A DNA stretch of 64,000 nt from a virus. The stretch spans positions 90,765 to 154,764 of IMG/VR virus record IMGVR_UViG_3300045988_058602, one strand, 5' to 3'. The position numbers were made by a program, and so were the translations under genes. Shown piece after piece: positions 19,171 to 64,000 of the stretch; positions within the stretch are counted from its first letter, which is position 1; each line of letters opens with the position of its first letter. The notes beneath the pieces were generated by a model, which ran no database searches, was not told where the DNA came from, and saw only the letters and a list, made by a program, of their open reading frames with translations.

Positions 19171-19174
19171 TATC

Positions 19175-20850: not shown

Positions 20851-20876
20851 ATCGGTTGAACTATAGCCCTGTCATG

Positions 20877-23311: not shown

Positions 23312-23336
23312 AATTTTTTAAATAAAGTTTGTGGAC

Positions 23337-24474: not shown

Positions 24475-25110
24475 TTAAATAGGCTCTGGAAGATATTTCC
24501 AAATATAGCCATACTATGATTTGGTTTTATTCTTACAGCATCCTATAATATGACTCTATGCAGATTTATTGTCAGTAATTCCGTTATTAATTAACCATTC
24601 CTAAGCTTCTCTGGAACCAAAGAATACCTGTATAAAATTACCTGCTAAGTCATACTAAGCAATTAACTTTGCGTTACTTTTTCTAATTTTTATATTATTT
24701 GCCTTCAAAACTTTGTAAATAGTGTCTTTACAGCACCCTATTTTTTCTTGTATCTAAGAACTAGTATATCCCAATCTAGCTAATTCTACAATTTCACTAT
24801 GATTGTATAGAATAGTGCCATCTCCTCCTTTAGAGGCATTGTACCCATTAGAACCATAAGTTCCTAGCTCTTTTATCCAATAGATTTCTCTTTCAGATAA
24901 TTCAGAGTTACTATCTACATATTCCAATTCCTCTATCATAAAGTTCTCAACACCATACTTATTCATGGCATCATATAAAGGTCTTTTGTTGCATCTTTCT
25001 TTCTAAAAGTCATAACAATGTTCCTTCCAGCGCTCTTCTATAGAAGTAGTAGTTTTTCCTACGTATCGCTTGCTATTAATTAAATTTGTAATGCAATAAA
25101 TATATGCCAT
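24475..25110 (-). CDS. GIY-YIG homing endonuclease (I-TevI/Seg-like) with 6 in-frame TAG codons
   Basis: N-terminal YIYCITNLINSKRYVGKT is a GIY-(10 aa)-YIG motif, and the C-terminus YGYIWKY is typical of Seg-type endonucleases. A single 212-codon frame is uninterrupted by TAA or TGA but contains 6 TAGs. The ORF-track fragments 24754-24966 and 25003-25266 are pieces of this gene. Confidence 0.6.
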
Positions 25111-25675: not shown

Positions 25676-25722
25676 ACCACATCTGCATTACGGAGAGTTA
25701 TACGATACTCTCCTAAACGTTA

Positions 25723-26067
25723 CTACGAATGTAGTAATTCTTGGGCCTCAATTTCGCCAATTATTTTAGTAAGTGCGATCTTGAATGGATTTCCCTTGAT
25801 TTTGTCGAAGAGATTGGCATCGCGTACCTCCTCAACTTTGTCTGGAACATTCAATTTTCTTTTACCGTTGTCTACGGTTTTCCATGTGATAACTGTGCAA
25901 CGCTTAACGTCATAAACGCTGTCGTTGCGATCAACGAACACCTTGAAGAAGTTTCTTTTGTGCTTTACTACCTCAACTCTTTTGAAGTTTTTGATAGGTG
26001 CGTGCATTTTCAAGTCACATCTTCCATTAGCTAAGAAAATCAATTCTGCCATAATAATACTCTGCAT
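25723..26067 (-). CDS. hypothetical protein (114 aa)
   Basis: Intact ORF. Confidence 0.45.
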   Translation of the reverse strand: MQSIIMAELIFLANGRCDLKMHAPIKNFKRVEVVKHKRNFFKVFVDRNDSVYDVKRCTVITWKTVDNGKRKLNVPDKVEEVRDANLFDKIKGNPFKIALTKIIGEIEAQELLHS

Positions 26068-28414: not shown

Positions 28415-28594
28415 TAGTACTAATCATTATTATCTTTAATTAGGTTGCGAGCTTTGTCCATCCCAGACTCATAAGCTTCTACAACATACTGTATAGCAGT
28501 TTTTGAATCAATTTGATTCATGGAATTGCTATTTTCTACCAAATCTTGAATAATCTCACTTAACTCTGGCATATTTTTAATAAAATAAAGGTTG

Positions 28595-30144: not shown

Positions 30145-30463
30145 TTCACTACAATTTGTTCTTCAGATTTTAATTTAGCTGGAGCATCAAAATGTAACTT
30201 ACCACATCTTACACACCAACAAACTCCAAATGAATTTTCTCTCACTTTACATCTGCCTTTCTCACAGATTTTAACTACTTTTCTGTAATTCTCCTTATCC
30301 ATAATTATATAATTTAGAAATACAGCCTTACTACCCCTATGTTCCTAGTTATTCTTTAGCTAGCTTTAGATTATTACTAGGTAATACCGCAACGGATTTA
30401 TTCAGCTGACTTTACCGCCTCTTGGTATGCAAGGCTAGGTCTCCCTAGCGAAGCTGTATTTAG

Positions 30464-30535
30464 TTGGGCTACCAGGACTCGAACCTGGACTCTCAGAACC
30501 AAAATCTGATGTGACTACCATTACACCATAGCCCA
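30464..30535 (-). tRNA. tRNA-Gln(TTG)
   Basis: U1-A72 acceptor TGGGCTA/TAGCCCA, D-arm TGGTGTAATGGTAG, anticodon loop TTTTGGT. Confidence 0.65.
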
Positions 30536-33183: not shown

Positions 33184-33369
33184 TTATAATGAAACCTTAT
33201 ATTTATCCCAATCACTGGTTAATGTCAAGGCTCCTTTAACATTTATTTCACTTGAGGGAATCTCATACATGTCCCCAGTTATAACTACTACAAATACTAC
33301 ATCACAAGTAGAATTATCAAAATGTCTAATCTTAGAATCTCCAGATGAACCTCCGCAATTCTTCAACAA
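33184..33369 (-). CDS. hypothetical protein (61 aa)
   Basis: Short ORF. Confidence 0.3.
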   Translation of the reverse strand: MLKNCGGSSGDSKIRHFDNSTCDVVFVVVITGDMYEIPSSEINVKGALTLTSDWDKYKVSL

Positions 33370-33737
33370 GACTTCATAATTTCCACTCTTTACCTAATGT
33401 TGAGTAGTTTTAACTGATACTCTCTTCAAACCCTCTTTATCTACTACAATGTCATATTTCTATGTATCATTCAAGGGAATTAGGACCGGAATGCAATGAG
33501 CAGTATAGTATGCTATAGCTCTTCCTAGTCCTAAATTTCCTTGATGAGATTTATACTAACTTTCCCAAGCGTTCATTTTTACAAAATTTGTATTAGATTT
33601 TCATCTTTACGATTACATTAAACCTGACTCTGCCACCCTTCCAAAAGCTAGTCTTACGACTAGCCAAGAATCATACAAAGAAGCACTAATACACAGAATA
33701 TAGCTAGAATACACCAGCCTATAGCCTGGACTGCTCC

Positions 33738-34544: not shown

Positions 34545-35105
34545 TTAGTCTAACCATTCAAATTCTTCACCCTTGAAATGTCTTGCAAAACAAGCATCGA
34601 ACACTAGCTTTCCAAACTGGGTTGATACGTATTTGGCAATTTCTTCAGATTTGCACGCAAGCATCCCGACAAAGGAACCGGCATGGCCGACGCCACTGTC
34701 AGAATCGAAAGAGCCGAGACCCGCATCGCCGCCAATAAGCGCGCAGCCGCCTACCAACGCGAATTTCTCGCCCTGATAACGGAAGTGACCAATGACCTCT
34801 GCATCCTTCGGAACTGATTTCATTCTAAAGAAGCGAACCCAAGGATACCATACAGTTCCAGTCAGCAGATTGAACTTGTGCTTTTCGTTCAGCGCATCCA
34901 GAATTGTTTGCAACTTAGCTAGAGCCTTTACAGATTCAGTGTAATGGATTTCACTATTAAATAAGTACCCAAGATAGTCTCTAGCGTCCTCATAGGTCTT
35001 TATTCGTCCCATAATATTCTCTGGAACAATTTCAACATTACCTGTTTTGGCATTGTAGATAGGCTTGTAGCCATCTGGACATTCAATTTCAATAGTTCTT
35101 TTCAT
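34545..35105 (-). CDS. remote DGR target protein (186 aa) carrying a second variable repeat
   Basis: aa 116-148 GGCALIGGDAGLGSFDSDSGVGHAGSFVGML parallel the tail-fibre VR peptide GGGANYGGGAGLGSFDSSNGVGGAFSYVGF. Confidence 0.6.
   Translation of the reverse strand: MKRTIEIECPDGYKPIYNAKTGNVEIVPENIMGRIKTYEDARDYLGYLFNSEIHYTESVKALAKLQTILDALNEKHKFNLLTGTVWYPWVRFFRMKSVPKDAEVIGHFRYQGEKFALVGGCALIGGDAGLGSFDSDSGVGHAGSFVGMLACKSEEIAKYVSTQFGKLVFDACFARHFKGEEFEWLD
34659..34760 (-). repeat. DGR variable repeat 2 (VR2, remote, opposite strand)
   Basis: GC-rich island. Its reverse complement ggtaggcggctgcgcgcttattggcggcgatgcgggtctcggctctttcgattctgacagtggcgtcggccatgccggttcctttgtcggg aligns to the TR. Mismatches fall almost only where the TR has A. 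Confidence 0.75.
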
Positions 35106-37222: not shown

Positions 37223-37375
37223 ATGCAAACACGTGTTTCACAACAAATGTTTACTAGCGGAATAAAAGAAAAAGACTTCCCTATTAATAGGGAATTATTT
37301 CTCTATCTTAGAGAAAGTATAATTTAATCTTTCTATAGATATGATGCAATCTTTTGCAAAGTTTATACCTTTTGT

Positions 37376-37588
37376 CTAATTATTAGCTGGAGGTTCCTCC
37401 CTAATAGTAATAGAATTTCTATTAGCAACATCACATTCTGGAAATATATAGATGTTATGAAGGTCGCAACATATCATAATATCTATTTCATCCTCGTTGT
37501 ATTTGTGAACGGTCCCTTTGTTATAATTATTACTTGTTAAACTAAAGTTCAACGAGTTATTTACAGTTTTACTCGCAGTAGTTTTCAC
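37376..37588 (-). CDS. hypothetical protein (70 aa)
   Basis: Short ORF. Confidence 0.3.
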   Translation of the reverse strand: MKTTASKTVNNSLNFSLTSNNYNKGTVHKYNEDEIDIMICCDLHNIYIFPECDVANRNSITIREEPPANN

Positions 37589-37777
37589 CTAAGTTCTGTA
37601 AAACTTGTTATTATAATATATAACAAAATCAAATGGTAGATTGTCAGACATTGGTAATAAAATATCTAATCCATATTTTGATAATTCACCAATGGCTATA
37701 CGCTCTCCTATTTCTCCGAGCTACTTTTTGTTTCTTAATTCGTCTACATTTATCATAGCTTAATTATTTAAAGTTGG

Positions 37778-47187: not shown

Positions 47188-48102
47188 ATGGACAAAAGTA
47201 AAATTACAAAACAAAATGGGAACATAGCTTTCGAGGAGGAGGCTCATATTTATTATGATGTTACAGAGCCTGAACAGAAATTTATATCTGTGACGACTTT
47301 AATACATTCTTTCACCCAACCCTTTGACAAAGAGTTCTGGTCAGCCTATAAAGCATTAGAGAAACTTCTGTCTAAAGAAGATTGGGCTATTGAGAAAAAG
47401 TCATTACTGAATACTAAGAAATTTGACAAAGTTCTACTTGAGCTTCATAACATTACAGAAGACGAGTTTAATAAGGAACAACAAGCTATCTTAGATGCGT
47501 GGGATTTAGAGAATAGGAACTCTTGCGAAAGAGGAACTAAGATTCATGCAGATTTAGAAAACTCTTTTTACAAAAAGAAGAAGAACATAGACCTTAGTAA
47601 ATATCAAATAGGTGGTAAGTTTGAGTGTGTAAAAGACCATAATGAATTAGATTTAGAGAATGGGGTATATCCTGAGTATTTAATATCTAGAGTATCGGAA
47701 GATGGAAAACTTAGAATAGCTGGACAAATCGACCTACTAGTTAAAAGAGGTAATAAGATAATTATAGGAGACTGGAAAACTAATAAGAAGATAGAAACCA
47801 AGAGTTTCTTTAATTCTAAAACCAAATCATCAGTTAAGATGAAATATCCTCTAAATAATTTAGATGATGTTAATTATTGGCATTATGCACTTCAATTAAG
47901 TACTTACGCCTGGATGATACAAAAAAAGAATCCGGAGTTTGAGATTGAAGATTTAGTATTAGTTCACTTTGATCATAGTGATAATATGACAGTATATCAT
48001 CTACCTTACCTAAAAGATGAAGTAATTAGAATGCTATTGTTTTATAAAAAAGAATCTGTACTAGCTGAAAACAAAAGAAAACGTCAACGTATTGAATATT
48101 AA
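47188..48102 (+). CDS. PD-(D/E)XK nuclease of the RecB/Cas4/YqaJ exonuclease family
   Basis: GQIDLLVKRG...IIGDWKTNKK (D...DWK) and QLSTYAWM (QxxxY) motifs. Confidence 0.6.
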   Translation: MDKSKITKQNGNIAFEEEAHIYYDVTEPEQKFISVTTLIHSFTQPFDKEFWSAYKALEKLLSKEDWAIEKKSLLNTKKFDKVLLELHNITEDEFNKEQQAILDAWDLENRNSCERGTKIHADLENSFYKKKKNIDLSKYQIGGKFECVKDHNELDLENGVYPEYLISRVSEDGKLRIAGQIDLLVKRGNKIIIGDWKTNKKIETKSFFNSKTKSSVKMKYPLNNLDDVNYWHYALQLSTYAWMIQKKNPEFEIEDLVLVHFDHSDNMTVYHLPYLKDEVIRMLLFYKKESVLAENKRKRQRIEY

Positions 48103-48104
48103 TT

Positions 48105-48320
48105 ATGACATTAGAAGAAATTGAAGAACGGTGGAAAATATGTAGACGATGTCCTATATGCGACCAAGATAATGGATTATGTAATGGAAATTTATATCTA
48201 AATCCAAAAAATAATGATATAAGTATAGGACCAAAAGAAGGTTATATAAAAGGATGCGGATGTCTACTAGAGAAGAAGATTCCAAACGAGAAAAAACATT
48301 GTCCTGCAGGGAAATGGTAA
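48105..48320 (+). CDS. Cys-rich zinc-finger protein (71 aa)
   Basis: CRRCPICDQDNGLCNG...CGC...HCP. Confidence 0.4.
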   Translation: MTLEEIEERWKICRRCPICDQDNGLCNGNLYLNPKNNDISIGPKEGYIKGCGCLLEKKIPNEKKHCPAGKW

Positions 48321-48637
48321 TGTACGGAACTCCCGTGCTGTATAGACCCGATAAGGCTTATGTACTTACTTATCAGGAAACAAAAGAAGAAAGTAGAGAA
48401 GATATGACAGAAAAATGGATTAAGGCAATATTTACTAAGCCTCTAACAATATTAAAGAGTATATATTTTAATATATTCGGAATAAATCAAGATTTAGCAA
48501 CCAAGAGATTAAAGATTTGTAATACTTGTCCTCACAAGTTATATACTTCTGTTGGAGAAGTATGTGAGGAATGTGGTTGTATATTAGAGAATAAAACTAG
48601 AATAGAAGATGAACATTGTGATTTATGTAAATGGTAA
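48254..48637 (+). CDS. Cys-rich zinc-finger protein (127 aa)
   Basis: CNTCPHK...CEECGC...HCDLC; overlaps the previous ORF in another frame. Confidence 0.4.
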   Translation: MRMSTREEDSKREKTLSCREMVMYGTPVLYRPDKAYVLTYQETKEESREDMTEKWIKAIFTKPLTILKSIYFNIFGINQDLATKRLKICNTCPHKLYTSVGEVCEECGCILENKTRIEDEHCDLCKW

Positions 48638-48645
48638 AATGAATT

Positions 48646-49371
48646 ATGGAAAATTTAAGAACAGAATTAAACAGTAACGAGAAACTAGCCTTATCTTTGA
48701 CCGGAATGGAAGGAACAGGAGAACACTTTATTTTAAATGGTGAAGCTGCAGATAAGACATTACTTAGAGAGAAACAAGAAAGATTTAATACAGCGGTAGA
48801 TGAAATAAAAGATAAATTCTCAAAACATAATAAAGCTTTAGAGGATTATGCTAATTCATTATCAGAAGATATGAATGGTGTAGAGATTATGCCTATGTAT
48901 GGGTATGCTCTTATCAAGCCGTTTGAACAGAACCCATTCCAAAAAATTAAGACTACTAAATCAGGATTAATTACAGACTTAGGAGGGTTTGCTCCAACAT
49001 ACAAGTCTAACGAGACTGGAGAAATTGAGGAAGAACAACAGTTTATCAAGGTAGGTACTGTAGTAGAGGTAGGCCACAAGTGTGAGTTCTTAAAGCCTGG
49101 TGATATTGTATTCTATACTATAGCTAGTGAATGTATGGTTCCATTTTACAAACTAGGATTCGTAGTAGTTAATGAGAATAGAATCATGGCTGTAGTTAAT
49201 GAGAAACTAACTGAAAGGAGAGACCAAATTAAGCAATCTCAAGACTGTATAAATGTAGATATAGATAAGATCCCAAAAGAGCTTGGAGATAGCTTACCTG
49301 AGAGAATAAAGAATTGGATGGAATACAAAAAGATAGGAATTAATTTACTTAGAGAGGATGGAAACAATTGA
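48646..49371 (+). CDS. hypothetical protein (241 aa)
   Basis: Intact standard-code ORF. Confidence 0.5.
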   Translation: MENLRTELNSNEKLALSLTGMEGTGEHFILNGEAADKTLLREKQERFNTAVDEIKDKFSKHNKALEDYANSLSEDMNGVEIMPMYGYALIKPFEQNPFQKIKTTKSGLITDLGGFAPTYKSNETGEIEEEQQFIKVGTVVEVGHKCEFLKPGDIVFYTIASECMVPFYKLGFVVVNENRIMAVVNEKLTERRDQIKQSQDCINVDIDKIPKELGDSLPERIKNWMEYKKIGINLLREDGNN

Positions 49372-49426
49372 TGAGAAAGTTTATTTCAAACCTGGGGATT
49401 GTGTTACTTTACGGTAGTGTAAGGTA

Positions 49427-49579
49427 ATGCATTCTCCAGTAATGCTTGTTCTGAGAAGGGAATCAGCATTATTTAAAGATAACCAGGGATTGCGCGGACT
49501 TAGATGTAGATGGTTTACTGATTCTGGACTGATGCAAGAAGCAGTATTTAATACAAAAGACTTAATTAAAGTAGAAGAA
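49427..49579 (+). CDS. small protein (50 aa)
   Basis: MHSPVMLVLRRESALF...; ends TAA 2 nt before the next ATG. Confidence 0.3.
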
Positions 49580-49581
49580 TA

Positions 49582-50796
49582 ATGGCGAAAATACAATTTG
49601 ATCCAGAGTTAATGTAGCATATCAAGACTATATATGGAGACGCAGAGTTAGACGGAAGAACTTTACAACAGTTGCATTAGACTTGGCAAAGTAATCCGAA
49701 CTCTATTAGAAATACTGCATAGTAGAAGAAAAGAAGTGCTGTGCCAGCTATACAACAAAAACCTATATTAGGATTAAAGCCGTCTACTCCTACTATTCCT
49801 AAGAAAATAAATGCACCTTAGCAACAAATTCAAAACGACGACTTAAGAGGAGTCTAGGGGTTTGGTACAGCATTTAGAGAAGCCAGAAAGAGAGGACTAA
49901 CTCAATTCAAATGGGGGAAAGGAGTGTATGGAACATAGTTAGCTAATGGAAAGAAAGCAACAGTAGAGGTAGGAACTCCAGTAATGAATAATCCCTATGT
50001 TACATATAGTCAAGACGGAAAAAGAGCTACTACGTACCAAAATCAAGTAGACTAGGAAACTGGAGAGCATACTGGAACTATCCAAGAACAATGGATAAAG
50101 CCGCCTACAACTAATATGTATGGGCAGAAACTAACTCCAGAATAGCTCAAAAATTAGAGAAGTTGGGAACATATACCAAAGGCAACTGCTAGATAGCAAC
50201 GAGTTAAATATCAACAAGGAGGAGCAATGGCTAATTAGGAAGAATTACAAAAAGCATTTATGGCATACTTAATACAGGATGCCGCAGCACAAGGAATACA
50301 ATTACAATCTGAGTAGGATTTAGAACAATATGCTCAGCAATTAGGAGAAGACGGAATTAAAGCCAAATACCAGGAATTTATGCAAAAAATGCAAGGTGGA
50401 GTTATGGCTAGATTAGGAGCTAAGCTTGAGTACTATAAAAAATTAAAAGGAGTTTGCCCAGAAGGGGAAGAACTTGTTTATTTTAAACAAGGAGGTAGAA
50501 TTTGTAAAGCCTGCCAGAAAGCTTAGAAAGGTGCTAAGGTAAAAGGTAACGAGGTAGACAAATTTAAGAAAGGAAGAGCACAGTATAAGAAAGATATGAA
50601 ATCAGCGAAAGATGAAGCTTCCAGAGATTCTATATCTATTAATAAATATAATGATTAGGAAACCATGTCTAATAAAGGACATAAAGGAAACTTCCAAAAG
50701 GGAAAATGGGTTCCTGATAGAAAGCAATATACTAAAAAGGATGCTTGTGGCTCTAAAATGAAAGTAAGCAAGTGTGGCTCTAAAATGAAGAAGTAA
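49582..50796 (+). CDS. late protein (404 aa), TAG-recoded, Gln-rich
   Basis: Single frame from ATG 49582 to TAA 50794 with about 20 in-frame TAGs and no TAA or TGA. Confidence 0.55.
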
Positions 50797-50829
50797 GAAA
50801 AGATTGTCGAATGTTAATGATTAATGATT

Positions 50830-51390
50830 ATGAATGTATTTAACTATAACACTTTAACTAAATAGTTAGAAATAAATGAACCAGAGATTCTTCTAGTTAA
50901 AGAGTTTAAAGCTTTACTGCAAAGAGATAAATCTGTGGAAAAGGATAGAGCAATTAGAGAACTATCATACATTTATTTAGCTATTGATTGGAAGAGTCCG
51001 TATAGCTAGTACTCTGAATATGAAAGGCACGATGAAGCAATTAATGATTCTGGATTAACAGAATCAGAATTTAATGATCCGATATTTAGGGAAGCATGTA
51101 GAAAATATAGAGCATTATAGGACTCAAATAAATCAATTAAATTATTAGAAGCTGCTAGAAGAGCTGCTGACTAGTTTATTGATTACTTCGATACTATTGT
51201 AGACTTAAATGAACGTGACACTAATGGAAAGCCAGTATTCTCTGCTGAGAAAGTAATGAAGGAAATGGCTAGCCTTCATAAAGTTCACGAAGAATTAATT
51301 ACATTAGAAGATGAGGTTAAAAAAGAACTTACTGAATAGTCTACCGTTAGAGGAGGGGCTACAGATGGTTTTGATCCTGGAGAATTTTAA
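50830..51390 (+). CDS. putative small terminase / DNA-packaging accessory protein (186 aa), TAG-recoded
   Basis: Frame ATG 50830 to TAA 51388 with 6 in-frame TAGs; the call rests on its position directly upstream of TerL. Confidence 0.4.
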
Positions 51391-51392
51391 TT

Positions 51393-53753
51393 ATGCCAAG
51401 AAAGAAAAAGATATTACCTGATGAACTATAGACTATAGTAGATTAGGTAAGAGAAAAAGAACATAAAGAAGATGCTGTAGAGGCAAGAGAGCTAGTATAG
51501 AAAATAAGAGAAGAAAGGGTCAAAAGTGCAGACTATTGGGATGTCAAGAAAGGAGACAAGATAGATGTTTTTGACCCTACTTTGTCTTATGAGATAACTG
51601 GCTATAGACCTATTGATGAAACGCATGGTTTGGACTTTAATCCCGAATGGTTCACCGAAACCAGAGAAGTATACAGAAAGACTGGGAAGTATTGTCCCTA
51701 CTTAAAAGACAGTAAGAGATACAATGAATTTTGGAAAGAGTAGTACAGAAGATGTAAATATGGAATGACAGTTAATGGTTATACTATTACTGGAGATAAC
51801 TATTTCTTCTTAAATTTCTATTAGCTTCCTATTATTGATGATAATAAAGCATCCGGTGAAGGAACTAATAGTGACTTCCCTATATTCTTTGCATCCCATT
51901 ACATGTTCTTCCATTACTTACAAATGGCTAGAGTACTACATAGACATGCAGCTTTAATGAAGGCTCGTTCAATCGGATTCTCAGAAATAAATGCCTCACT
52001 ATCCGCTCGTATGTATTCTGTAATTAGAAGAAGTAGAGTAATGATTACTTGCTTTAATGATACCTTCCTTAAAGGTACATTTAGTAAGTTTGATAATGCT
52101 CTAACATTTTTAAATACTTGCACAGGTGGAGGATTCTTTAAGCTTCGTCTAATTGACCAGGATTTAAGAAAGAAGTCTGGTAAGTAGGTTAAAGTAAACG
52201 GATAGTTTGAAGATGTTGGATTTAAATCAGAAGTAGTAGGAATAAATGGAGCTAAACCATCTAATATTCGTGGAGACCGTGTTGACTTATTAATATATGA
52301 CGAAGCAGGGTCTTGGCCAGGATTAGATACTGCTGTGGTACAAGGACAAGAACTTTGTGAAGTCTAGGGTAAGCCTCGTGGAACAATGTTGTTTGGAGGT
52401 ACTGGTGGTGATATGGGTGCTCCATTAGCAGGTCTTAAAAAGATTTACTATAATCCAAAAGCTTACAAAGTTCTTCCCTTTAGACATAATTATACTCAAG
52501 ATGGGACTACTATTGAGAGTGGATTCTTTATTCCATATTTTGTACAGTCTTTGAACTCCGAATACATGGATCATAGAGGCGTATGTAATACCGTAGAATA
52601 TAAGAAGTATCTGTAGGAAGAAAGAGATAATCTATTAGCAGTACCCGATGACTATTTAAAGAAGTGTGCTGAACGTTGTTGGAATGCAGAAGAAGCCTTC
52701 AATCTAGAAGGTGTTAACAAGTTTAACAAAATTCTTATTTCTGATCAATTAGCTAATATAAGACTAAAGAAAATAGGTCCCAGACCAGAATGTGGTTATA
52801 TAGATTACTTCTATAAAAATAATAAACACACTGCTGATAACATTGATGGATTTAAGTGGATTCCTAATACTAAGGGAAAGGTAAAGATTCTGGAACATCC
52901 AGTATGGTCTGACCTATATAAGGAGTAGATGGATAAACTTAGATAGGAAGCAGAGGAAAGAGGAGAGGAATTTGAAGCACCTGTATATAAAGAAATGCAT
53001 AATCTTTATATTGCAGGAATAGACGGTATTGATATAGGAGCTAATTAGACCTCGAAGGAAACTAAAGATCCTTCTGACTTCTGTATAACTATTAAGAGAA
53101 GGGCATTTGGTATGAGTGAGCCATAGTATGTAGCAATGTATAAGGACAGACCTGGAGACATTCGAGAGGCTTACAAAATAGCTATGTGTTTACTTAGATA
53201 CTACAACTGTAAGGTAAATATAGAAGCAACTCGTGTTGGTATGATTACCTGGGCTAGAGAAAAGAAATGTTTGAATTACTTTATGAAACGTCCTAGAGCT
53301 ACTCTTACTGATGTTAAAAATGGAACTACTAAATAGTATGGAACTCCAGCTACTAAAACTATTATAGAACAACACACTGATCTAACTGCTGCGTTTGTGG
53401 AAGATTATTGTCATACTATATGGTTTGAAGAAATGTTGGAATAGCTTACTGGATATAATGACGAGAATAAAGGTAAGTTCGATATTATAGCAGCTATGGG
53501 TATGACAGAATTAGCAGATGAAGAGTTGTCTGGAAGATAGCCTATAGTTGTGGAAAAAGAAGTTGAATTGTTCAGGGATTTTGGTTATTATTACGATGAG
53601 AGAGGAATAAAAAGATTTGGAGTTATACCAACTAGCGAAACTCCAGAATTAAATATGCAAGACGATGAATACGATGACCCATACAGAATTGAAACAAGTG
53701 ATCCTAGAGTATATGAGAGACTTATACCAAATGGAATATATAGGCGGACTTGA
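51393..53753 (+). CDS. terL: terminase large subunit (TerL), TAG-recoded
   Basis: Frame from ATG 51393 to TGA 53751 joins the ORF-track fragments 51903, 52386, 53136 and 53550. It contains an ATPase Walker B motif DLLIYDEAGSW and a nuclease motif IAGIDGIDIG, with about 17 in-frame TAGs. Confidence 0.75.
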
Positions 53754-54009
53754 GATTGAGGATTTGAATCCAGTTGGTTACAAAATATCTTTTAACTTTG
53801 ACAGGTCTGAGATGCCATTAGTAATCATAGCTGATTTACCCGATGATGAATTTCTGCCTTTTATTAAAGAAGAATTAAGAAGTAGGAAGTTATAGAGAGT
53901 TAAGTATTATAACGCCACTAAGCTTCCTCCAGAACAACATAATACATGTTATGAAAGAGAAAGAATTGATAGACAAAACAAACGAGGCTATTGCGGAACT
54001 TGTGTATGA
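53665..54009 (+). CDS. possible small overlapping ORF (114 aa) with 1 TAG
   Basis: Alternative frame overlapping the TerL 3' end and the portal 5' end; uncertain. Confidence 0.2.
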
Positions 54010-56125
54010 TAAATATGAGCTTTAGAAAGCTTATAATTATTATAATGGTAAAAGAGATCCAGAATAGTTTCGCTATCTTGAAGAGAATTTTGGAATAGGC
54101 AGTCCTACATCAGTAGAATTTACACCACTACTTAAGAAGCATGTAGATGCTTTAGTAGGGGAATATCTAGGAACTCCAATACTCCCGAAAGTCTCTTGCA
54201 AAGATTCAGATACTATCAGTAATATAACCAGAGAAAAATAGCTAGAGATAACTAAAGGAATAGTTAAGTTTTTAAAAGATCACTTAAGTAATGCTATCTT
54301 AAGCTTTATTGACGGAAAAGATATTACTGATAAAGCTGTAAAGACTCAGCTAGATAAGGTTATATAGGATATTGATTAGTCATTCATTTCTCAGTATGAA
54401 ATTGCTGCGCAGAACATTATTCACTACCTAATGCAATCTAGGGAAACTGATCTTATTACTAAGTTGCGGTAGTTATTAACTGACTTACTAATTACTGGAT
54501 ACACATTCTTTAGAGTAAAGTCTTCTTTCTCCGGAACTAATGTGGAGATAGAGGTTCTTAACCCATTAAATACGTTTGTTGATAGAAATCCAGAATCTCC
54601 ATATGTCAAGAAATCATATAGAGTTGTTATTAGAAAATGGATGAGTAAAAGCCAAATACTAGCTAAGTATGGTAAAGAAATATCTAGGGAAGACTTAAAG
54701 AGGTTAAAAGATGAATGGAGAGCAGATGATTCTGCTGCCGTATACAGAAGAGTTTATGGAGATGTTTGTACAGTGGTTAATGAAGATCAAAATCATGAAA
54801 CCATTCCTGGGTATCCAGATAATGAATATAGTGCTCATAGATTTTAGTTAATTCCGGTCTACGATGTAGAGTGGATAGAGACTGATGATGATTTCAAAAT
54901 GCAGAGATACAATACTATAAGGATAGGAGAGGAAATCTATATTCTTAGAGGATTAGACAAGACTGCAATGAGGTCTAAAGACGATCCTAACTCTTGTTCA
55001 TTATCAGTAAATGGAGTTTATTTTCTAAATCGTTCTCAGTAGCCATATTCTTTAATACTTAAGTGTGCACATCTACAGGATAGATATGACTTACTTAACT
55101 ATTACAGAGACAACTTGATAGCTAATAGTGGAACCTCAGGAGTTATTATGGATATGTCATTACTTCCTACTAACTTAGGAGTACATTGGCCAGAAAGAGT
55201 ATAGAAATGGCTAGCTTATAAAAAAGCTGGTATTCAGTGGGTTGATACTACTTAGGAGGGTAGAAATGACAATGGAAACGCTCCTTTAAATACTATCTTT
55301 AATGGATTTGATGACACCCTTAAAGCGTAGGCTGTATAGGCTATTGAGTTAGCTATTCAATCAGTAGAATAGACTACATCATCTATAACTGGAGTATTTA
55401 GGGAAAGACTTAATGGAATAGAGACTCATGATGCTGTAACTAATATTAAGCAAGGAGTCGCTAACTCTTATATAGTAACTAAACACTATTTCCAACAAAT
55501 GGACTTGATAACTTGTGAAATATTATTAGATAGTCTTAATTAGGCTAAAGTAACTTACAAGAAAGGGTTAACTGGAACTATTATATTGGGAGATAAGTAT
55601 TAGTAGATATTTACTGCCCTTCCTGAATATTTCACAATGACTGATTTTGACATTCATATAACCTCCAGCACTGAAGTTATGGAAGATTTATAGACTATTA
55701 AAGCTATGATTCCGGAGTTCCTTAAGAGTTAGCAAATGGATGCTGGTATAGTTTTTGAAGCATTAACAGCTAAGAGTTTGACAGACTTAAAGTACAAGGT
55801 TAAAAAAGCTATGCAGGTTTAGAAAGAAGAGAACAATCAATTACAATAGTTGTAGTAGAAGTTGGAAGAAACTTCATAGCAAGCACAACAACTACAATAG
55901 GAATTGGAGAAAGCTTAGTAGAAAATAGAAAGGCTAGACGAACAAAAACTTGGACTAGAACAGTAGAAGATGCAACTAGAGTATAAGGTTAATTGGCTTA
56001 AAGCTCAGTCTGATTCTACTTACAAAGATAGACAAATGGATATTGAAGAGAAGAGAACTGAAATAGAGTTAGCATAGCTTCATGACGGAAATCCATATAA
56101 CGATAAAGTAAGACAAATACATTAA
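53951..56125 (+). CDS. portal protein (724 aa), TAG-recoded
   Basis: Frame ATG 53951 to TAA 56123 includes the fragment 54542-54847. N-terminal AYNYYNGKRDPEQF resembles the portal YYxGxQ motif. The C-terminal coiled coil becomes Gln-rich when TAG is read as Q. Confidence 0.6.
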
Positions 56126-56126
56126 T

Positions 56127-56996
56127 ATGGCTACAGCAGGTACAATAGTATATAATAAAGATTAGCAACAAATATATCCCATTTCTCATGCAGAGGTGGT
56201 AATTAGTAATGCTTCTGGAAGTAAGTCAGATGTAGAAGACAACCTTGTAAAATTATGGAAAAAGGTCTCAGAACTAAGTGGGGACTCGGAAGCAGCTAGT
56301 AATATCATGGTAGTAGTTACTTATTGTAAAACAAATACCAAAGATGAATCCGAAGTAAAAAAGTTGTCAACATGGAGTGATATTTTTGAACTACCAGACT
56401 CAGAAAGACCGTATGTTTGGAAGAAAACTCTATACACGTATAAAGGAGACACTGCTAAACTTAATGAGATTTACGAAATTGTTGCTACAGATATTGCTGA
56501 GAAAATTCAGAATATCTATATTGCAAGATCAACTGGGGTTGCACCAGTTATTACTTATCCAATACTAAAGGATGGATATGGAGATCCTATATTAGACTCT
56601 GAAGGAAATACTTAGGAAGATTTGACTGCCTTTGACAATAAATTACCAGAAGGCTGGTCAGAAACTCCAGTTAGTATTGGTCCAGCTACTCCATATGTAT
56701 TTATATCAACACGTAAGAGAGTAGAAGGATTATGGAAAAGATATTCTGAACCAGCTCAATACGGTAGGTGGGCATTTGACAGTTAGTTAGAGTTACGATA
56801 TACCATTACTTCTGGAGATAAACCAGCTGTTAATACTACAAGTGACGATCCTGGAAGTTAGTGGTCTAGCGATACTCCAGATAATTTTACTGGAAAAATG
56901 TGGATGATTACTGCAACATCAGTAAACGGAGTATTGAATAGTGATGAAAATAACGTTAGATGGCACGGTCCTCATTTGATGTCAATTATACAATAA
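56127..56996 (+). CDS. structural protein (289 aa), TAG-recoded
   Basis: Frame includes the fragment 56196-56615 and has 4 in-frame TAGs; TAA stop overlaps the next ATG (TAATGG). Confidence 0.5.
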
Positions 56997-57727
56997 TGGA
57001 ATTTAGTATTGATATACATACCCAGATTACTGGGGAAATAACTATTGAAGACTTCTCTAAAGAATATGGATAGTATATTGATGAAGATTTAGAAGTAGTA
57101 ACTTCTTACGACTCTTATAAGTATAGTGAGAGTGCTACTCTAAATACTATCATCAAGGTAAGTATAGGGGATGCCACACTAATAGATGTCCTTTTAAATG
57201 ACCATACAGAAGATTTAGATTCATGTACATTTAAAGTAAAAGAGGATGGATATTATGTGGTAGATCATATAATACTTCCTAATATGAAGTGGTATGAAAA
57301 TTCATCTGATGAATATAAGGAATACTACGAAACTATCTATGTTACAGATGGGGAGAAACTATATAAAGAAGTAGAAGGAGAGTTAGAAGAGTGTACGGTA
57401 AAGGAAATTCTAGAAAGAAACATAGAAGGCACTACTATCAAGAAGTGTAAGGTAGATGTATTCTTTACAGGGAATTTGCAATAGTGCTATATTAATTATT
57501 GTAAAAAATTATTTGACGGACTCCTAAATAAATGTGTTACCAATGAACATGAGGCAGATATTTTTGCCAGAGATTTTATTTGGATGACTCTCAACATTAT
57601 AGATTATTTAATAGGCTTTAAACAATTCATGGAAGCTGAAAGATTGCTAGCAATGTTCCGCACTTGTGGAGGATTCTGCAATACTCGCCATCATGGACAT
57701 AAACATATAAGTTGTGGATGCTCTTAA
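56996..57727 (+). CDS. hypothetical late protein (243 aa), TAG-recoded, Cys/His-rich C-terminus
   Basis: Frame includes the fragment 57257-57484; ends CGGFCNTRHHGHKHISCGCS then TAA. Confidence 0.5.
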
Positions 57728-57882
57728 AAGAAAGGCTATTAAAAGGTATGAAGAGTTTCTTGGAAGAATTAAGAAAGGATATAGACCAGATTATCAAGAT
57801 ATTTTGAATTTAATCTGTTTTATTAATCTACCTGTAAAACTAGATAATCACGAATTTATTAAATAGCAACTATTAAATCATA

Positions 57883-59469
57883 ATGATACAGCCTATTTAC
57901 ACTTCGGTAAGCAATGCTGACATAAAGCCTTGTGGAAAGAAAGGACATTTAATAAAAAGTGAGCCTATACCACTTCTGAGAGATAATTACTTAGGAGAAT
58001 ATAGAACAGAACTAGAAAGAGCTAAGGTTAGAAAAAACTTAGGAATTGCTGATGAGTAGAGTCTTCTTTGGGGAAACATTAGTGGAACTATAGAGGCCTA
58101 GAAAGACTTAGTTTAGTATATTGAACAAAAATGGACATATACTAGCGATGTTGCAGAGAATATTAACACTGTAAAAGATGCATTAGACTATGCATTGTTT
58201 TTTATTAGTTAGTATGAGGCTAATACTGAGGAAATAGAAGAGATAAAGGTTGATATAAGTAATATTAGGACTAGCATTTAGGTATTAGGAGAAGATCTAA
58301 AAAGAGAGATTGATACTAATAGGGAAGGACTAAATAACTTGTCTTAGGATATAGTTGAAATTAATTAGGCAATATCTAATATCAATGCTGCTATAGAAAA
58401 TATAGACGTTGATAAGAACATTCTTAATTGGATTAAAAACAATCTTTAGAACTCTAAGACTGTAGAGATAAAGGAAGATAATACTATAGAAGTTATTCTT
58501 TCTAAGCAGGATGATAATGCTATTCATTTAATTGAATAGGAATTACCTCCTGCAGAAGAAGGGGAACCTTCTACTATAACTCTTCCAGGAATCTATGTAA
58601 AGAATCTAGAACCTTAGTTAGAAGAAGCTTAGAAATCTATAGAAGAAGTATAGAAAGCTTAGGAAGAGACTAATGAAAAAGTTAGTACTAATAGTGAGAG
58701 TATTACAAATATTTAGACTAGTCTAGAAACTATAGCTACCTATTAGACAGAACTTCCGGATGATACAACTTCTACTGTTATAGAAGGTACTACTGTTGAA
58801 AAATTAAAAGGAAAACCATTTAATGAAATCATAGATACTTTACTATTCCCAACAGTAGTCAGAGATTTAATATATCCATAGTTGTATTATAGCTTTACTT
58901 CCCAAATTGTGGAAGTAGGAACCGCATTACTAAACCCAACCTTAACTTTCGTAAAAAATGATGCAGGAGAAGAAACTGACAGAGAAGAAGTTATTACTTA
59001 TAACGGTTCTCCTATAGAGTCTGCTACATATGATTCTATTGGAGTTTATACTCATTCTGGTACAGTAAACTATGCTGCTGGAGAATACCTAGTAAACAAT
59101 AAGGGAGAAATCACGGATAAGAGGGTAGAAGCTGGTTCTATATCAGCAACTGCACAAGTAACAGCTACTTATCCTTGGTATTCCGGAAATACTGATGGGC
59201 TAATAAAATAGTCTTTAGTTCCATTTAATTAGGCTTCTGGCACTATTACATTTTCGTTAAGCGGTAGGGCTATTATAAAACTACCAGGAAGTAATACTCA
59301 GCTAAATTCCTTCACAGTAGATGGAGGATTGGGATATTTGAATGTCGATCTGAATGGTTGGGAAGCTTCTACTGAACAAATAAATGGATTCCCATATAAA
59401 GTATGGACTAAGAAGGATACCTACTCTTCAGCACTACCTCACCAAATTAACTTTATTCTATCACAATAA
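57883..59469 (+). CDS. tail/structural protein with coiled coil (528 aa), TAG-recoded
   Basis: Frame includes the fragment 58882-59211 and about 20 in-frame TAGs; TAA overlaps the next ATG. Confidence 0.5.
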
Positions 59470-61337
59470 TGGCATTTAAATATACAGGTGATGCTACCCT
59501 AGGTGTTGGTTTAACCGTAGAAACTCCGAAGCCTCTGGATAATAGAACAGTAGTTGATAACCTAGAGGAGCTATATTCTATTCCAGAGAAATATGCTTAT
59601 TAGGGCATGACCGTATCTAATATAGATAACGGAAATATTTATATGCTTATTGATAAGTCTAAGATTAAATATAAAGAAGGATGGAAAGCGTCTTATGAAT
59701 CTATTCAGATAATAGCTTGTACAGAAGCTGAATATAAAGAATGGTCTGCTAATACTACAGAAGATTTTAAACCAATAGATGAGAATAAAACATATCTTCA
59801 CGCTGAAACATATTATTATATATATGAGGACAGCCTAGACGATAATTAGTTTTACCTATCAGCAGAATGGGGTAAGAAAATAGAAGAGTAGTTAAAGCAG
59901 AAAGCTCTTAATACTACAGTTGTATAGATTAGAAATGATTTAGACTAGACTATTTAGAATCTTTCTAAGTATGCAACATTAGAAGAATTAACTGCTAATT
60001 ATGCTCCTAAGGCGGACCTAGATTTGGAAGATCCAGAATCCCTTTTATCTAAAGCTCTGTCTAACCACTATACTAAACAGGAAACAGATGATATATTTGT
60101 TACTAAGGAAAGTCTTAGAGGGGAAGGAATAGAAGGAGATGATTTCGTCTTTGTTACTAAAAAGCAATATGACGAAGATTAGTAGGCTATCTAGAGCGAA
60201 TTAGATAAGACTTTAAAAGTAGATGGAGATGGTTCTCTGGAAAGTATTACTGTGGGACAGATAAAATCTCCAGTGATTGAAGGAGAGGATTAGCTAGTAG
60301 TAGATGTTAAATCAGACGGATTGTTTGTTGGAGAAGATCAATTTGCTATGATGTCTGATGTCCCAAATTTAGTTACATTAACTGAAGAGGAATATTTAAA
60401 ACTGGTAGAAGATGGTACTCTAGAACCTGACACATACTATTATGTGTATGACGTGACAAATGACGCTAAAGTCTATATTACTAAAGAGTATCTAGATTAG
60501 AATTACCATACTACTCATTAGTATTAGTCATGGGTAGCTACCAACTACTACTCAAAATCTCAGATTGATGAGATAGTTGCTGGTTTACAGAAACTTGGGA
60601 GCTACGTTACTACAGAAGATATTAAAGCATATTACACTAGTCAATAGGTAGATGAAAAGTTTCTTACAAAAGAGAATGCTCAATCTACATACGCTACCTA
60701 GTAGTCATTAACGGAGCTGTCTGGATAGATAGCAGAAGAGTATGTAACAAAGGATAGTTTGAGAGGAGATTCTCCCGAGACTGGTGATGATGACTTTATA
60801 TTTGTTACTTAGAATAAATATCAATAGGATTAGACTGCTGCTTCCCAAGAATTTAATACTAAGCTATTAAAATCAGAATAGATAGAAACTTCTGACATTA
60901 CTATTTAGAAAATTGTAGAAAAAGAAGTACAATAGGGAACAACTGAAGAAAGTCCAGGAGATATAGTAATAGAGCAAACTATTGAAAGCTCTATTAATCT
61001 TACTACTGAAGATAATAGGTTATTAGCATCAGGTAAACAAGTTGCTCTTATTGAAGAAGTTCCAAAATTAGTATGTTTACCCTAGACTGATTATGATAAC
61101 CTAGTTGAAAATAATAAGACAGAGAACGATACTTATTACTGTACTTACGGAGAAAAAGATATATAGGATACAGGATATGTTAGAAGCGAATATCTTACTG
61201 AAAAGTACTATACTAAAGCAGAGGTAGAAGCTTTGATACAGGAAGCTGTAAGCGAATTATAGAAAAAGATAGATGCAATATAGCCTGGTTCGGGCAGTGC
61301 ATCAGTAGATGAATCAAATGAACAATTAATATTTTAA
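59469..61337 (+). CDS. tail fibre/structural protein (622 aa), TAG-recoded
   Basis: Frame includes the fragment 59607-59849 and about 35 in-frame TAGs; TAA at 61335. Confidence 0.5.
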
Positions 61338-61342
61338 ACAAG

Positions 61343-61552
61343 ATGGGAACAATTTATATTGACGGACAGTTTAAAAGCTCTGCTAAGCCTGTAAAAGTTG
61401 TTAGTGGTAGTGTAGGAGGGTCTGGAGTAGATCCTGATACTCTCAAGAACTATGCTACTAAAGCAGAACTTCAGAAAGCTGTTGAGGACTTAACTGCTTC
61501 CATAGAAGGAATAGATCATGATGTAGTTGAAGAAACTTTAATAATATAGTAA
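61343..61552 (+). CDS. small late protein (69 aa)
   Basis: The ORF-track fragment ends at TAG; the real stop is the TAA immediately after it. Confidence 0.4.
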
Positions 61553-61553
61553 T

Positions 61554-63374
61554 ATGGCAGCTATCAAATCTATAAAGGTAGGAGAAATTACATACGACTT
61601 AAAGGCTACTTATGATGGTTCTGGCAACAATATTGCCGAGACCTATGCTAAATCTAGTGCTATTCCGACTAAAGTATCATAGTTAAGTAATGATAAAAAC
61701 TACCTAACAGAACATTAGGACATTAGTGGTTTAGCAACTAAAGAATAGATAGACGAAAAAGTAGACAAGGAATTAGGAAAAGGTCTTTCCGAAGCTAATT
61801 ATACTGAATTAGAAAAATAGAAGCTTTAGGGTGTAGAAGATGGTGCAAATAATTATGAACACCCAACTACAGCCGGATACAAACATATTCCCTCTGGAGG
61901 AGCAGCAGGATAGATTTTAACTTATTCTAATGATGGTACTGCTCAATGGGCAGATTCTAGCACTAAGTTAGATTAGCAATTCTAGGCACTTAATGAGGCT
62001 TGGGAAGAACTTCAGAAAGCTTAGCAAAATTTAGATAGTTAGGTAACAGCTATGACTAGTAACGCAGATCTTTACTCCTATGGAGTAGAATGGGATATAA
62101 CTGTATCTTCTCCGGTTCTCACCAGAATTGGAAACCCGTTACTGCATAAATCACTTCCTATTCAGTCTGCTTATAGGGGATGCGTAGCCAATGGAGCTAA
62201 TATAAACTATTTCTTACATCCAGATAATTGGGCTTATAAGGAAGACGGTACTACTCCCTCTGTGCTTGATGGTAGTGAAGGAACTGTTAGGGTTAACACT
62301 CCTAAGTTCTATGGTAAGTCTGGTTCCAATGGAAATAAAAGATGGGTAAGAGAATCAACTGTTAAGATAGACGACTCTTGGGTTGAAATACCGGAATTGT
62401 TAATTGATGCATATAGAAGCACAGTTGATACTACAGTATCTGCAACTCCAAAGGCTGTATCAGTAGTTAATACTACTACAGCATTTAGAGGAGGTGGAAA
62501 TAGAGCATAGTTCGACGAGTACTTGACTACTGAGCTGGAGACTAAAGATATTTTCAGAAGCGACTTAGGAAAACCAAGAACGAATATTTCCAGAGCCACA
62601 ATGAGAACTTATGCTACAAACGCAGGTTCTGAATTACTATGTTACGAATATTACAAGTGGATATTCTACTGGAATTATGTAATAGAATATGCTAACTTTA
62701 ACTCTTAGGCTACATATGAGGCAGAGCTTACTGCTGATGGCTATCATTAGGGAGGTCTTGGGCCCGGAGTTACGGATTGGAGTAATTCTGACACAAGTTG
62801 GTCTGGATATAACGGAACTTATCCTCTTACTCCATGCGGTCACTGTAACGATATTGGTAATTTCACAGGAGTTAAAGATTTAGTTATCCCAGGATGCACT
62901 GCAACAGATGGAACTAGTACAGTGGCTACTCATACTTTTAAAGTACCTCGTTGGAGAGGCTTTGATAATCCATTTGGAGACATTTGGACAAACCTAGATG
63001 GAGTAGTTATTCAAAGAACTGCAGCGAATGAAATAAGTAGTGTATATACTACCACAGATAAAGCGGAGTTTACTGACGTAATTGGCAACAAGACTATAGC
63101 CGGATACGAGGTAGCACAAGATGGATACATTAAAGAGTTTGATTTAGGAGAGACAGCGGAGATTATACCATCTTCTTGTACTGGAGCTTCAATTACTACT
63201 TATATGTGTGACTACCACTATTGTAACGCTAGCTCTACAGCGCTTCGCACGCTGCGGGTGGGCGGCGGCGCGAATTATGGCGGCGGGGCGGGTCTCGGCT
63301 CTTTCGATTCTAGCAATGGCGTCGGCGGTGCCTTTTCCTATGTCGGGTTCAGGACTCTAAATAGAGTATCTTAA
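61554..63374 (+). CDS. tail fibre protein with a C-terminal FGE/C-type-lectin-like variable domain (606 aa), TAG-recoded; primary DGR target
   Basis: One frame joins the fragments 62052, 62523 and 62922. The tail-fibre motif SGGAAG(Q)ILTYSNDGTAQW is present, with the Q encoded by TAG. The C-terminus ...RTLRVGGGANYGGGAGLGSFDSSNGVGGAFSYVGFR is encoded by VR1. Confidence 0.65.
63242..63349 (+). repeat. DGR variable repeat 1 (VR1)
   Basis: GC-rich island ctgcgggtgggcggcggcgcgaattatggcggcggggcgggtctcggctctttcgattctagcaatggcgtcggcggtgccttttcctatgtcgggtt aligns to the TR; nearly every mismatch is at a TR adenine. Confidence 0.8.
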
Positions 63375-63444: not shown

Positions 63445-63552
63445 CAAAAAAGAACTGCTAGTAGGCAGCAACGCGAATAATGGCAGCAATGCAGGTCTCA
63501 GCTATTTCAATTCTAACAATGACGTCAGCAATGCCAATTCCAATGTCGAGTT
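63445..63552 (+). repeat. DGR template repeat (TR)
   Basis: ctgctagtaggcagcaacgcgaataatggcagcaatgcaggtctcagctatttcaattctaacaatgacgtcagcaatgccaattccaatgtcgagtt is rich in AAT, AAC and AGC codons in the VR reading frame, and no TR codon can mutate to a stop by A-to-N change. Confidence 0.8.
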
Positions 63553-63749
63553 ATTATATATTTAGAAACAATTTTAATTTTTACCTTATTTAGTTTGCTA
63601 AGTAATATCCTTGCCTCTAGGCAAAAAATAACGTAGTGTTGAATGAAGGGTGTTAGTAGGTTATCTCGAACGCTTCCGATGAAATATATAAAAAATTGAA
63701 ACGTGTAGGACATTTGCACGAAAGGGTGTATGATTTATGGAACATCGAA

Positions 63750-64000
63750 ATGGCTGATGATAGAGCCAGAAAAAATAAATCTGTTCGATGTGGAATTAAG
63801 CAACATGATAAAAATAGATTAAAAGAAAATAAGGAATTATCCCACAAACTAAGGGACCTAATTTATCAGACGTCTGAATATAGTACTTTCATAATATATG
63901 AACCTAAGGGAAGATTAATCTTTAGACTTCCATACTATCCTGATAGAATAACTCATCATGCGATAATGAATATTATGGAGCCTATATGGACTAAAATATT
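63750..64000 (+). CDS. DGR reverse transcriptase, 5' partial (continues beyond the window)
   Basis: MADDRARKNKSVRCGIKQHDKNRL...GRLIFRLPYYPDRITHHAIMNIMEPIW has the RT domain-1 pattern P..DR..HHA....EP, and it starts about 200 bp downstream of the TR. Confidence 0.65.
   Translation, partial: MADDRARKNKSVRCGIKQHDKNRLKENKELSHKLRDLIYQTSEYSTFIIYEPKGRLIFRLPYYPDRITHHAIMNIMEPIWTKI

Follow-up and report, generated by a model that had tools for sequence, protein, structure and literature searches.

We found that a late structural module in a 64,000-nucleotide stretch of viral DNA (IMG/VR record IMGVR_UViG_3300045988_058602, positions 90,765 to 154,764; hereafter the window, numbered from its first letter) yields full-length genes for the terminase large subunit (TerL), the portal and the tail proteins only when the amber stop codon TAG is read as a sense codon. 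Very probably this is late-gene recoding under genetic code 15 in a large crAss-like phage, with phage-encoded suppressor transfer RNAs (tRNAs) that would place a translational lock on late functions.

A structural module open only when TAG is sense

Annotation with translation table 11 shatters this 14-kb module and misses its TerL, portal and tail genes, whereas table 15 restores them. Stop-to-stop open reading frames (ORFs) of at least 100 amino acids cover 25.8% of positions 49582-63374 under table 11, and 97.2% when TAG is the single stop read as sense; the corresponding values are 33% for TGA and 63% for TAA. Among 100 dinucleotide-preserving shuffles of the same region, TAG-sense coverage averaged 20.7% and reached at most 35.1%. 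The longest frame free of TAA and TGA spans 792 codons in the observed sequence, compared with a mean of 149 and a maximum of 209 in the shuffles. Comparing coding density under the two tables had been proposed as a check in a preliminary description of this DNA, and the gain is the one that it anticipated.

The same description had held that the fragments of each late gene join across TAG and never across TAA or TGA, and this is what the gene calls give: the 11 plus-strand genes at 49358-63374 contain 130 in-frame TAG codons and not a single in-frame TAA or TGA, and all of them end at TAA (ten genes) or TGA (TerL). All three stop codons occur in the remaining two forward frames across these genes. 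A codon-usage score trained on the long ORFs of the window selected one plus-strand frame per gene across the region; inside genes, TAG is the sole in-frame stop of the chosen frames, and the few TAA and TGA codons fall in scoring windows that straddle gene boundaries. If TAG is counted as glutamine, it accounts for 130 of 248 glutamine codons in the late genes (52%, beside 118 CAA/CAG) and for 2.9% of all late-gene codons.

The merged genes have recognizable relatives. The positions given earlier for TerL and portal proved right, and both proteins match PHROG profiles (Table 1); together with those of the tail proteins, these matches extend across TAG sites. Pfam returned nothing significant for TerL, portal or most late proteins. 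The sequence motifs cited as examples are also present, with TAG written as q: GGAAGqILTYSNDGTAQW in the tail gene at 61554-63374, and QqLqqK...QQLQqELEKAqqK at the C terminus of the portal. The stop–start overlaps are real, with true TAATG at 49582 and 59469. Two points of the preliminary description need correction. The block starts not at 49582 but with the gene at 49358, which carries one TAG that 47 relatives retain, and the suggestion of lysis-like genes is unsupported: none could be assigned to lysis within the block by PHROG and Pfam profile searches.

TAG as a glutamine codon

Codon-level comparison with relatives indicates that TAG stands for glutamine in the structural module. We aligned nine late genes, codon by codon, with their orthologues in 54 loci (53 IMG/VR contigs and L001). 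At the aligned window TAG sites (128 of 128), the facing codons were TAG (2418), CAA (1008), CAG (330), GAA (174) and GAG (85), then others. Because CAA differs from TAG at two positions, its enrichment is not explained by mutational proximity. The reverse comparison agrees: one or more relatives have TAG at 76 of 114 CAA/CAG sites of the window (67%), compared with 15% of the sites for histidine, 14% for glutamate, 11% for lysine and fewer for the rest. In the relative L052, whose TerL and portal genes lack TAG, glutamine occupies 17 of the 28 sites at which the portal gene of the window has TAG.

In a protein alignment of 120 TerL homologues, glutamine outnumbers every other residue at 13 of 16 TAG sites and is found in at least 110 homologues at 12 of them, although this result is partly circular, as the database proteins were themselves called with TAG as glutamine. 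For L001, whose TerL gene has 21 TAG codons, the table 11 translation disagrees with the database protein. The codon-level analysis was substituted for the protein alignment because of this circularity. The part of the preliminary proposal that called for homologue alignments is thus borne out by close relatives, which give glutamine at TAG; more distant homologues are taken up below.

Two suppressor tRNAs

The window carries 27 tRNA genes detected by ARAGORN and one extra detected by Rfam, among them two suppressors on opposite strands (Table 1). The first is of glutamine type and has the amber anticodon CUA. Its best match in the window is the ordinary tRNA-Gln(UUG), at 71% identity, with which it has in common U1-A72, G2-C71, the D-arm and the A73 discriminator. 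The CTA anticodon is found in nearly all relatives scanned, and the acceptor and anticodon stems show compensatory changes.

The second suppressor has the anticodon UUA. Orthologues were found in L001, L005, L007, L011, L014-L023, L028-L031, L039, L043, L048 and L053, where the stems again show compensatory changes; the anticodon is CTA in most, TTA in L007 and CTG (glutamine) in L048. The L048 sequence points to a glutamine descent for this tRNA. The L021 copy combines the TTA loop of the window with a 1-nucleotide deletion in the anticodon stem, and the loop of the L030 copy is aberrant. A UUA anticodon is able to pair with UAG through wobble.

The UUA tRNA is preceded, 26 nucleotides upstream on its own strand, by an RNA of the RAGATH-14 family (Rfam RF03145). 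RAGATH-14 RNAs also occur in L005 (1719-1890), L007 (2061-2267) and L014 (1245-1418). All those detected, that of the window included, score 157-173 bits, and each lies 26-55 nucleotides upstream of the second suppressor on the same strand. L036 lacks the second suppressor tRNA and has a RAGATH-1 hammerhead ribozyme in its stead (772-850). A literature search for RAGATH-14 found no mention of it.

The ochre-type TTA anticodon attracts notice because 58 of the 82 genes called in the window end in TAA. One could imagine that, late in infection, a functional UUA tRNA under the control of RAGATH-14, or processed by it, gives regulated, partial read-through of TAA and TAG, and that the transfer-messenger RNA (tmRNA) of the phage handles run-off ribosomes; we regard this scenario as improbable. 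It would include an anticodon path in this lineage from CUG (glutamine) through CUA (amber) to UUA. Ochre reassignment has, to our knowledge, no example in phages, and read-through of TAA by the UUA tRNA, if true, would be a move in that direction. Since no conserved gene proved to contain TAA in frame, it is simpler to suppose that the UUA tRNA would be a back-up amber suppressor acting by wobble. The late genes equal their orthologues in length and thus give no sign of TAA recoding. A BLAST scan of TAA-spanning ORFs against relatives was uninformative, because close DNA matches occurred in non-coding frames too. Of possible further interest are the RAGATH-14 and suppressor pairing, the CUG/CUA/UUA anticodon series and TAG in free-standing homing-endonuclease genes; the pairing and the series are the sole parts that might repay more work.

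TAG use outside the structural module

Genes were called from TAG-sense ORFs scored by codon usage. Outside the block, 71 genes contain 319 CAA/CAG codons and no internal TAG (seven TAG-bearing genes, described below, are excluded from this count). The use of TAG relative to CAA/CAG in the late genes differs from that in these 71 with a Fisher p of about 1e-58. Nine TAG codons do occur in the extended ORFs of the 71 genes, within the first 21 codons or the final 1-10 codons; those within the first 21 codons are probably upstream of the real start. Among the TAG-free genes of the minus strand are those for NAD-salvage enzymes, for two SPFH proteins and for an OmpA-like, an AAA ATPase and a radical-SAM protein. 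The plus-strand genes that separate the CUA tRNA from the recoded block are TAG-free, as are their orthologues in nearly all of about 52 relatives.

All 82 genes terminate at TAA or TGA if TAG is sense, and no gene ends at TAG without a back-up TAA or TGA inside 10 codons. Six minus-strand genes have TAG 1-10 codons before TAA or TGA (18266-18718, 19157-19849, 25720-26067, 28414-28572, 39057-39236 and 43364-43831); in each, TAG may be the stop and the TAA or TGA its back-up. In the last of these, the first TAG coincides with the end of the paralogue at 42291-42749, which suggests that TAG may act as a stop there, with a back-up behind it. The same arrangement of a TAG stop and a back-up stop has been described in Zeta phages (PMC12386605).

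The seven excluded genes comprise three endonuclease genes and four small genes (Table 1). A GIY-YIG gene and two PD-(D/E)XK genes stand free among tRNA genes, and TAG makes up 12 of the 17 glutamine codons in their called ORFs. One small gene lies upstream of the CUA tRNA; the other three, at 46076-47073, lie within the standard-code span at 45009-49371 and have TAG sites that 18-33 relatives retain. Three claims made earlier need qualifying. That the long minus-strand genes lack internal TAG is true of most, but the three endonuclease genes and the three genes at 46076-47073 need read-through. That minus-strand genes never end in TAG holds if TAG is sense, whereas six of them may do so. Confinement of the recoding to late genes fits the 71 TAG-free genes and not the seven.

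A model for decoding and timing

The codon pattern, the glutamine identity of TAG at the DNA level, the presence, conservation and glutamine-likeness of the tRNA genes and a recoded-versus-standard split conserved gene by gene in 20-52 relatives are demonstrated here; from these we infer charging by host glutaminyl-tRNA synthetase, competition with release factor 1, a standard-code host and a role in timing. In the proposed model, code 15 would govern the genes for packaging, the portal and the tail. The standard-code genes, among them the minus-strand block of tRNA and auxiliary-metabolism genes and the plus-strand exonuclease and GroES-like genes, could be read by unmodified host translation, while glutamine-type suppressor tRNAs would accumulate during infection. 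The CUA tRNA, apparently derived from tRNA-Gln and presumably charged by the host glutaminyl-tRNA synthetase, would decode UAG, for which it would have to out-compete the release factor 1 of the host. The UUA suppressor on the opposite strand probably backs it up through wobble at UAG. Full-length TerL, portal, tail and homing-endonuclease proteins would then appear only after the suppressors had built up, which would constitute the translational lock.

Several observations weigh against this model. Recoded and standard genes are interleaved, which weakens the timing component a little: the recoded gene at 44156-44557 lies upstream of the CUA tRNA, three recoded genes lie at 46-47 kb and the recoded endonuclease genes lie in the tRNA block. 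As to the amino acid, distant standard-code TerL homologues (25-44% identity; MT835470, cr1_1 and ProJPt-Bp1, aligned codon by codon) mostly do not have glutamine at the TAG sites, although the sites are unconserved at that divergence, so these homologues do not decide what TAG encodes. The window covers 64 kb of a genome of roughly 180-190 kb, and for this genome the case is drawn from sequence. The description of the minus-strand block as early is likewise based on its gene content (tRNAs, NAD-salvage, SPFH, OmpA-like and AAA ATPase genes); scans for sigma-70-type promoters, terminators and the Bacteroidetes -7 motif TAnnTTTG gave no excess over shuffles. A scan of the larger genes, in a window that represents about a third of the genome, turned up neither a release factor nor a synthetase.

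Alternative explanations

Among the alternatives, the one that survives best accepts the recoding as real and assigns it a different main role. The suppressors would sabotage the host by forcing read-through of host stops, including those of defence proteins; the phage's own genes would be protected by back-up stops or by their avoidance of TAG as terminator, and TAG in the late genes would be a tolerated by-product. This hypothesis was put forward in two previous studies (PMC7886860 and PMC12386605), and related Zeta phages retain suppressor tRNAs without in-frame recoding (PMC12386605). It suits the 82 of 82 genes that end in TAA or TGA, every TAG-ending candidate having one of these stops inside 10 codons, and the presence of two suppressors, of which one has the broadened anticodon UUA. 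Yet TAG supplies 52% of late-gene glutamine and none in 71 other genes, and a gene-by-gene split conserved across relatives is unexpected of a neutral one. We consider sabotage as the main role unlikely but still worth keeping in view; it is compatible with the data, and sabotage and late-gene timing are not mutually exclusive.

A uniform code 15 throughout the phage, and perhaps its host, would leave the TAG-free genes to be explained by recent acquisition or codon bias. The scatter of TAG-bearing genes over both strands would agree with this. However, the 71 genes have no TAG among 319 glutamine codons, compared with 130 of 248 in the late genes; the TAG of gene 43364-43831 sits where its paralogue ends, suggesting a TAG stop; suppressor tRNAs of its own would be needless to a phage in a code-15 host; and the published cases have standard-code hosts (bioRxiv 10.1101/2021.08.26.457843). 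Very little probability can be given to this explanation, which was rejected on the uneven use of TAG.

Still less probable is that TAG is read as another amino acid (glutamate, lysine, tyrosine or pyrrolysine). Glutamate and lysine codons are the next commonest at TAG sites, but CAA and CAG together are about five times as frequent as GAA and GAG at these sites, the reverse comparison gives 67% for glutamine against 14% and 11%, and the order glutamine, glutamate, lysine is the usual exchange pattern of glutamine. The CUA tRNA is glutamine-like, the L048 orthologue of the second suppressor reads CUG, and metaproteomics on related phages gave glutamine (PMC9523058). ARAGORN labels the CUA tRNA 'Pyl', a label that it gives to any CTA anticodon. 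Pyrrolysine decoding likewise uses a tRNA with a CUA anticodon to read UAG, and it requires the pylTSBCD genes and a structurally atypical tRNA, UAG being sparse and dependent on context in such systems. Unlike that tRNA, the tRNA of the window forms a normal, glutamine-like cloverleaf. A scan of the proteins of a subset of the window genes showed no pyl genes, and a pyrrolysine system was rejected because of the cloverleaf and because TAG is frequent (2.9%) and exchanges with CAA/CAG. Finally, that the interrupted genes are pseudogenes or products of sequencing or assembly error is next to inconceivable: nothing but their fragmentation under table 11 suggests it, and it is refuted by the codon alignment and the stop counts, with one stop type in frame 130 times, the same genes recurring, with many TAG sites shared, in over 50 independent contigs, and full-length homology of TerL, portal and tail proteins through TAG sites.

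Gene content of the window

Table 1. Genes, RNAs and repeats of the window, with the number of in-frame TAG codons where counted.
Feature	Position	Strand	TAG	Remarks
NAMPT-like phosphoribosyltransferase	5271-6833
SPFH protein	7965-8789	minus	0
OmpA-like protein	9227-10243	minus	0
Dense tRNA array	13901-37927	minus		25 tRNAs by ARAGORN and 23332-23404 by Rfam only; small ORFs and auxiliary genes between
tmRNA	20874-21438	minus		Rfam RF00023, 69.3 bits; 565 nucleotides
GIY-YIG homing-endonuclease-type gene	24475-25110	minus	6	PF01541 6e-13; between tRNA genes
AAA ATPase	26999-28414	minus	0
Ordinary tRNA-Gln(UUG)	30463-30535	minus		ARAGORN; comparison for the suppressor
SPFH protein	31085-32893	minus	0
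PD-(D/E)XK endonuclease (PDDEXK_5)	33184-33576	minus	3	PF11645 6e-10
Variable region 2 of the retroelement	34665-34755	minus		In gene 34545-35105 (minus strand)
PD-(D/E)XK endonuclease (PDDEXK_5)	37295-37756	minus	3	PF11645 2e-23
Radical-SAM protein	37990-38949	minus	0
Suppressor tRNA, anticodon UUA	41439-41509	minus		ARAGORN; Rfam 57.3 bits
RAGATH-14 RNA	41536-41742	minus		Rfam RF03145
Gene for 133-aa protein	44156-44557	plus	4	Upstream of the CUA tRNA; TAG sites kept in 14-34 of 46 relatives
Suppressor tRNA, anticodon CUA (amber), glutamine type	44696-44768	plus		ARAGORN; Rfam 66.3 bits
Standard-code plus-strand genes	45009-49371	plus	0	From the CUA tRNA to the recoded block
Small gene	46076-46468	minus	2	phrog_15610 match; hydrophobic stretches that look membrane-spanning by eye
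Small gene	46465-46656	minus	1
Small gene	46732-47073	minus	1
Exonuclease	47188-48102	plus	0	PHROG 9e-23
GroES-like protein	48646-49371	plus	0	PHROG co-chaperonin GroES 6e-6
Small gene, first of the recoded block	49358-49582	plus	1	TAG retained by 47 of 52 relatives; two have CAA or CAG
404-aa Gln/Lys-rich protein, function not assigned	49582-50796	plus	15	Pfam and PHROG: no match
188-aa protein	50824-51390	plus	5	phrog_16390 (unknown function)
TerL, 786 aa	51393-53753	plus	16	phrog_6681 8e-63; ends at TGA
Portal, 724 aa	53951-56125	plus	28	phrog_6547 2e-47; 10 TAG within the last 100 codons
289-aa protein, function not assigned	56127-56996	plus	4
255-aa protein, function not assigned	56960-57727	plus	2
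528-aa coiled-coil tail-like protein	57883-59469	plus	18	Weak phrog_788 tail match, 4.5e-4
622-aa repetitive fibre-like protein	59469-61337	plus	27	Internal repeat 60138/60789
Small gene, 69 codons	61343-61552	plus		TAG at the penultimate codon
Tail protein or fibre, 606 aa	61554-63374	plus	13	phrog_5302 tail protein 5e-79; 3' end is variable region 1
Variable region 1 of the retroelement	63257-63347	plus		3' end of the tail protein gene
Template repeat of the retroelement	about 63453-63552	plus
Putative reverse transcriptase ORF	about 63690-64000	plus		Identified by eye; continues past the window end

The fibre-like gene contains an internal repeat (60138-60182 and 60789-60833, plus strand) with the peptide motif DDFxFVT.K.Y..D, and TAG of one copy faces AAA, CAA and GAA in the other copy. 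TerL has thousands of relatives in the protein database, the nearest being full-length proteins at 72-87% identity encoded on contigs up to 195 kb. Some relatives have a longer TerL: the homologue P0003, of 1131 amino acids, carries intein and homing-endonuclease domains (PF05204, PF05203 and PF14528), and the TerL match spans 2.7-3.5 kb in L035, L048 and L053, compared with 2.36 kb in the window, where TerL has no such insertion.

A diversity-generating retroelement (DGR) lies at the end of the block. In the core of the repeat, the template differs from both variable regions solely at template adenines. Variable region 1 forms the 3' end of the recoded tail protein gene, and variable region 2 lies 28 kb away. 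The tmRNA in the tRNA array, which has large insertions, was missed by ARAGORN; its tag frame, read by eye, gives AEIAPVRMAA and then UAA. The two published crAss-like genome descriptions consulted contain no mention of a tmRNA. The DGR, RAGATH-14 and the tmRNA are features known in kind.

Comparison with known recoded phages

The homology of TerL and portal identifies the phage as a large crAss-like phage of the order Crassvirales. In a tblastn comparison of TerL with annotated phages, Crassvirales terminases (cr1_1, ProJPt-Bp1 and others) aligned with about 80% of TerL at 25-29% identity (E values of 1e-30 to 1e-37), and an unannotated human-gut phage matched at 44% identity. A megablast search of the 13.8-kb block against INPHARED gave no match. 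IMG/VR already contains contigs (L023, L024 and L042) that are about 97% identical to the window at the nucleotide level over roughly 19-20 kb, and a 97%-identical contig is recorded as IMGVR_UViG_3300045988_066445 (178,602 bp).

Within the crAss-like phages, membership in the Zeta group is most likely, judging from the contigs of relatives (178-195 kb), the number of tRNAs, the GC content, the DGR and amber suppression. The amber-suppressing Zeta genomes, which include ctHMy13, ctoVY1, cthgQ11 and 3717_85572, have 176-189 kb, 23-27 tRNAs, a GC content of about 35%, a tRNA-CTA and a DGR (PMC12386605, Table 1), and DGRs are listed for this clade (PMC12386605). The window is similar in having a GC content of about 35%, 27 tRNAs (and one more by Rfam), a tRNA-CTA and a DGR, with relatives in the same size range, but the clade table lists CTA suppressors only, whereas the second suppressor of the window reads TTA.

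More distant parallels share parts of the arrangement. Lak megaphages are an unrelated lineage with genomes of more than 540 kb. They too have TAG reassigned in their structural and lysis genes, and are gut phages with Bacteroidota hosts; some encode release factor 2 (bioRxiv 10.1101/2021.08.26.457843). Phages that read TGA as tryptophan (code 4: Lera, other Zeta, Agate and Jade) also combine a suppressor tRNA and recoded structural genes with standard-code early genes, and recoded homing-endonuclease ORFs have been reported in Agate (bioRxiv 10.1101/2021.08.26.457843), but the stop codon and the amino acid are different.

The closest parallel is the published code-15 late-gene recoding of crAss-like phages: our finding is correct but already known. 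Yutin et al. 2021 described 243 crAss-like phages with TAG as glutamine or TGA as tryptophan (PMC7886860), Borges et al. proposed a late-gene and lysis-timing model and also noted recoded homing-endonuclease ORFs (bioRxiv 10.1101/2021.08.26.457843), and Peters et al. 2022 confirmed by metaproteomics that two crAss-like phages use code 15 (PMC9523058). Confinement to late genes had been presented in the preliminary description as a departure from published cases; it is itself the crAss-like pattern (PMC7886860; bioRxiv 10.1101/2021.08.26.457843). As in those phages, TAG occurs in TerL, portal and tail genes, recoding falls mostly in the structural part, a tRNA(CUA) is present, the amino acid is glutamine and the genome is of low GC content, favouring TAA stops. 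Nothing essential differs; here there are two suppressors on opposite strands and a few recoded small and endonuclease genes outside the structural block. The phage thus adds one more clean case of a code-switch strategy already established for gut crAss-like phages, with no new principle.

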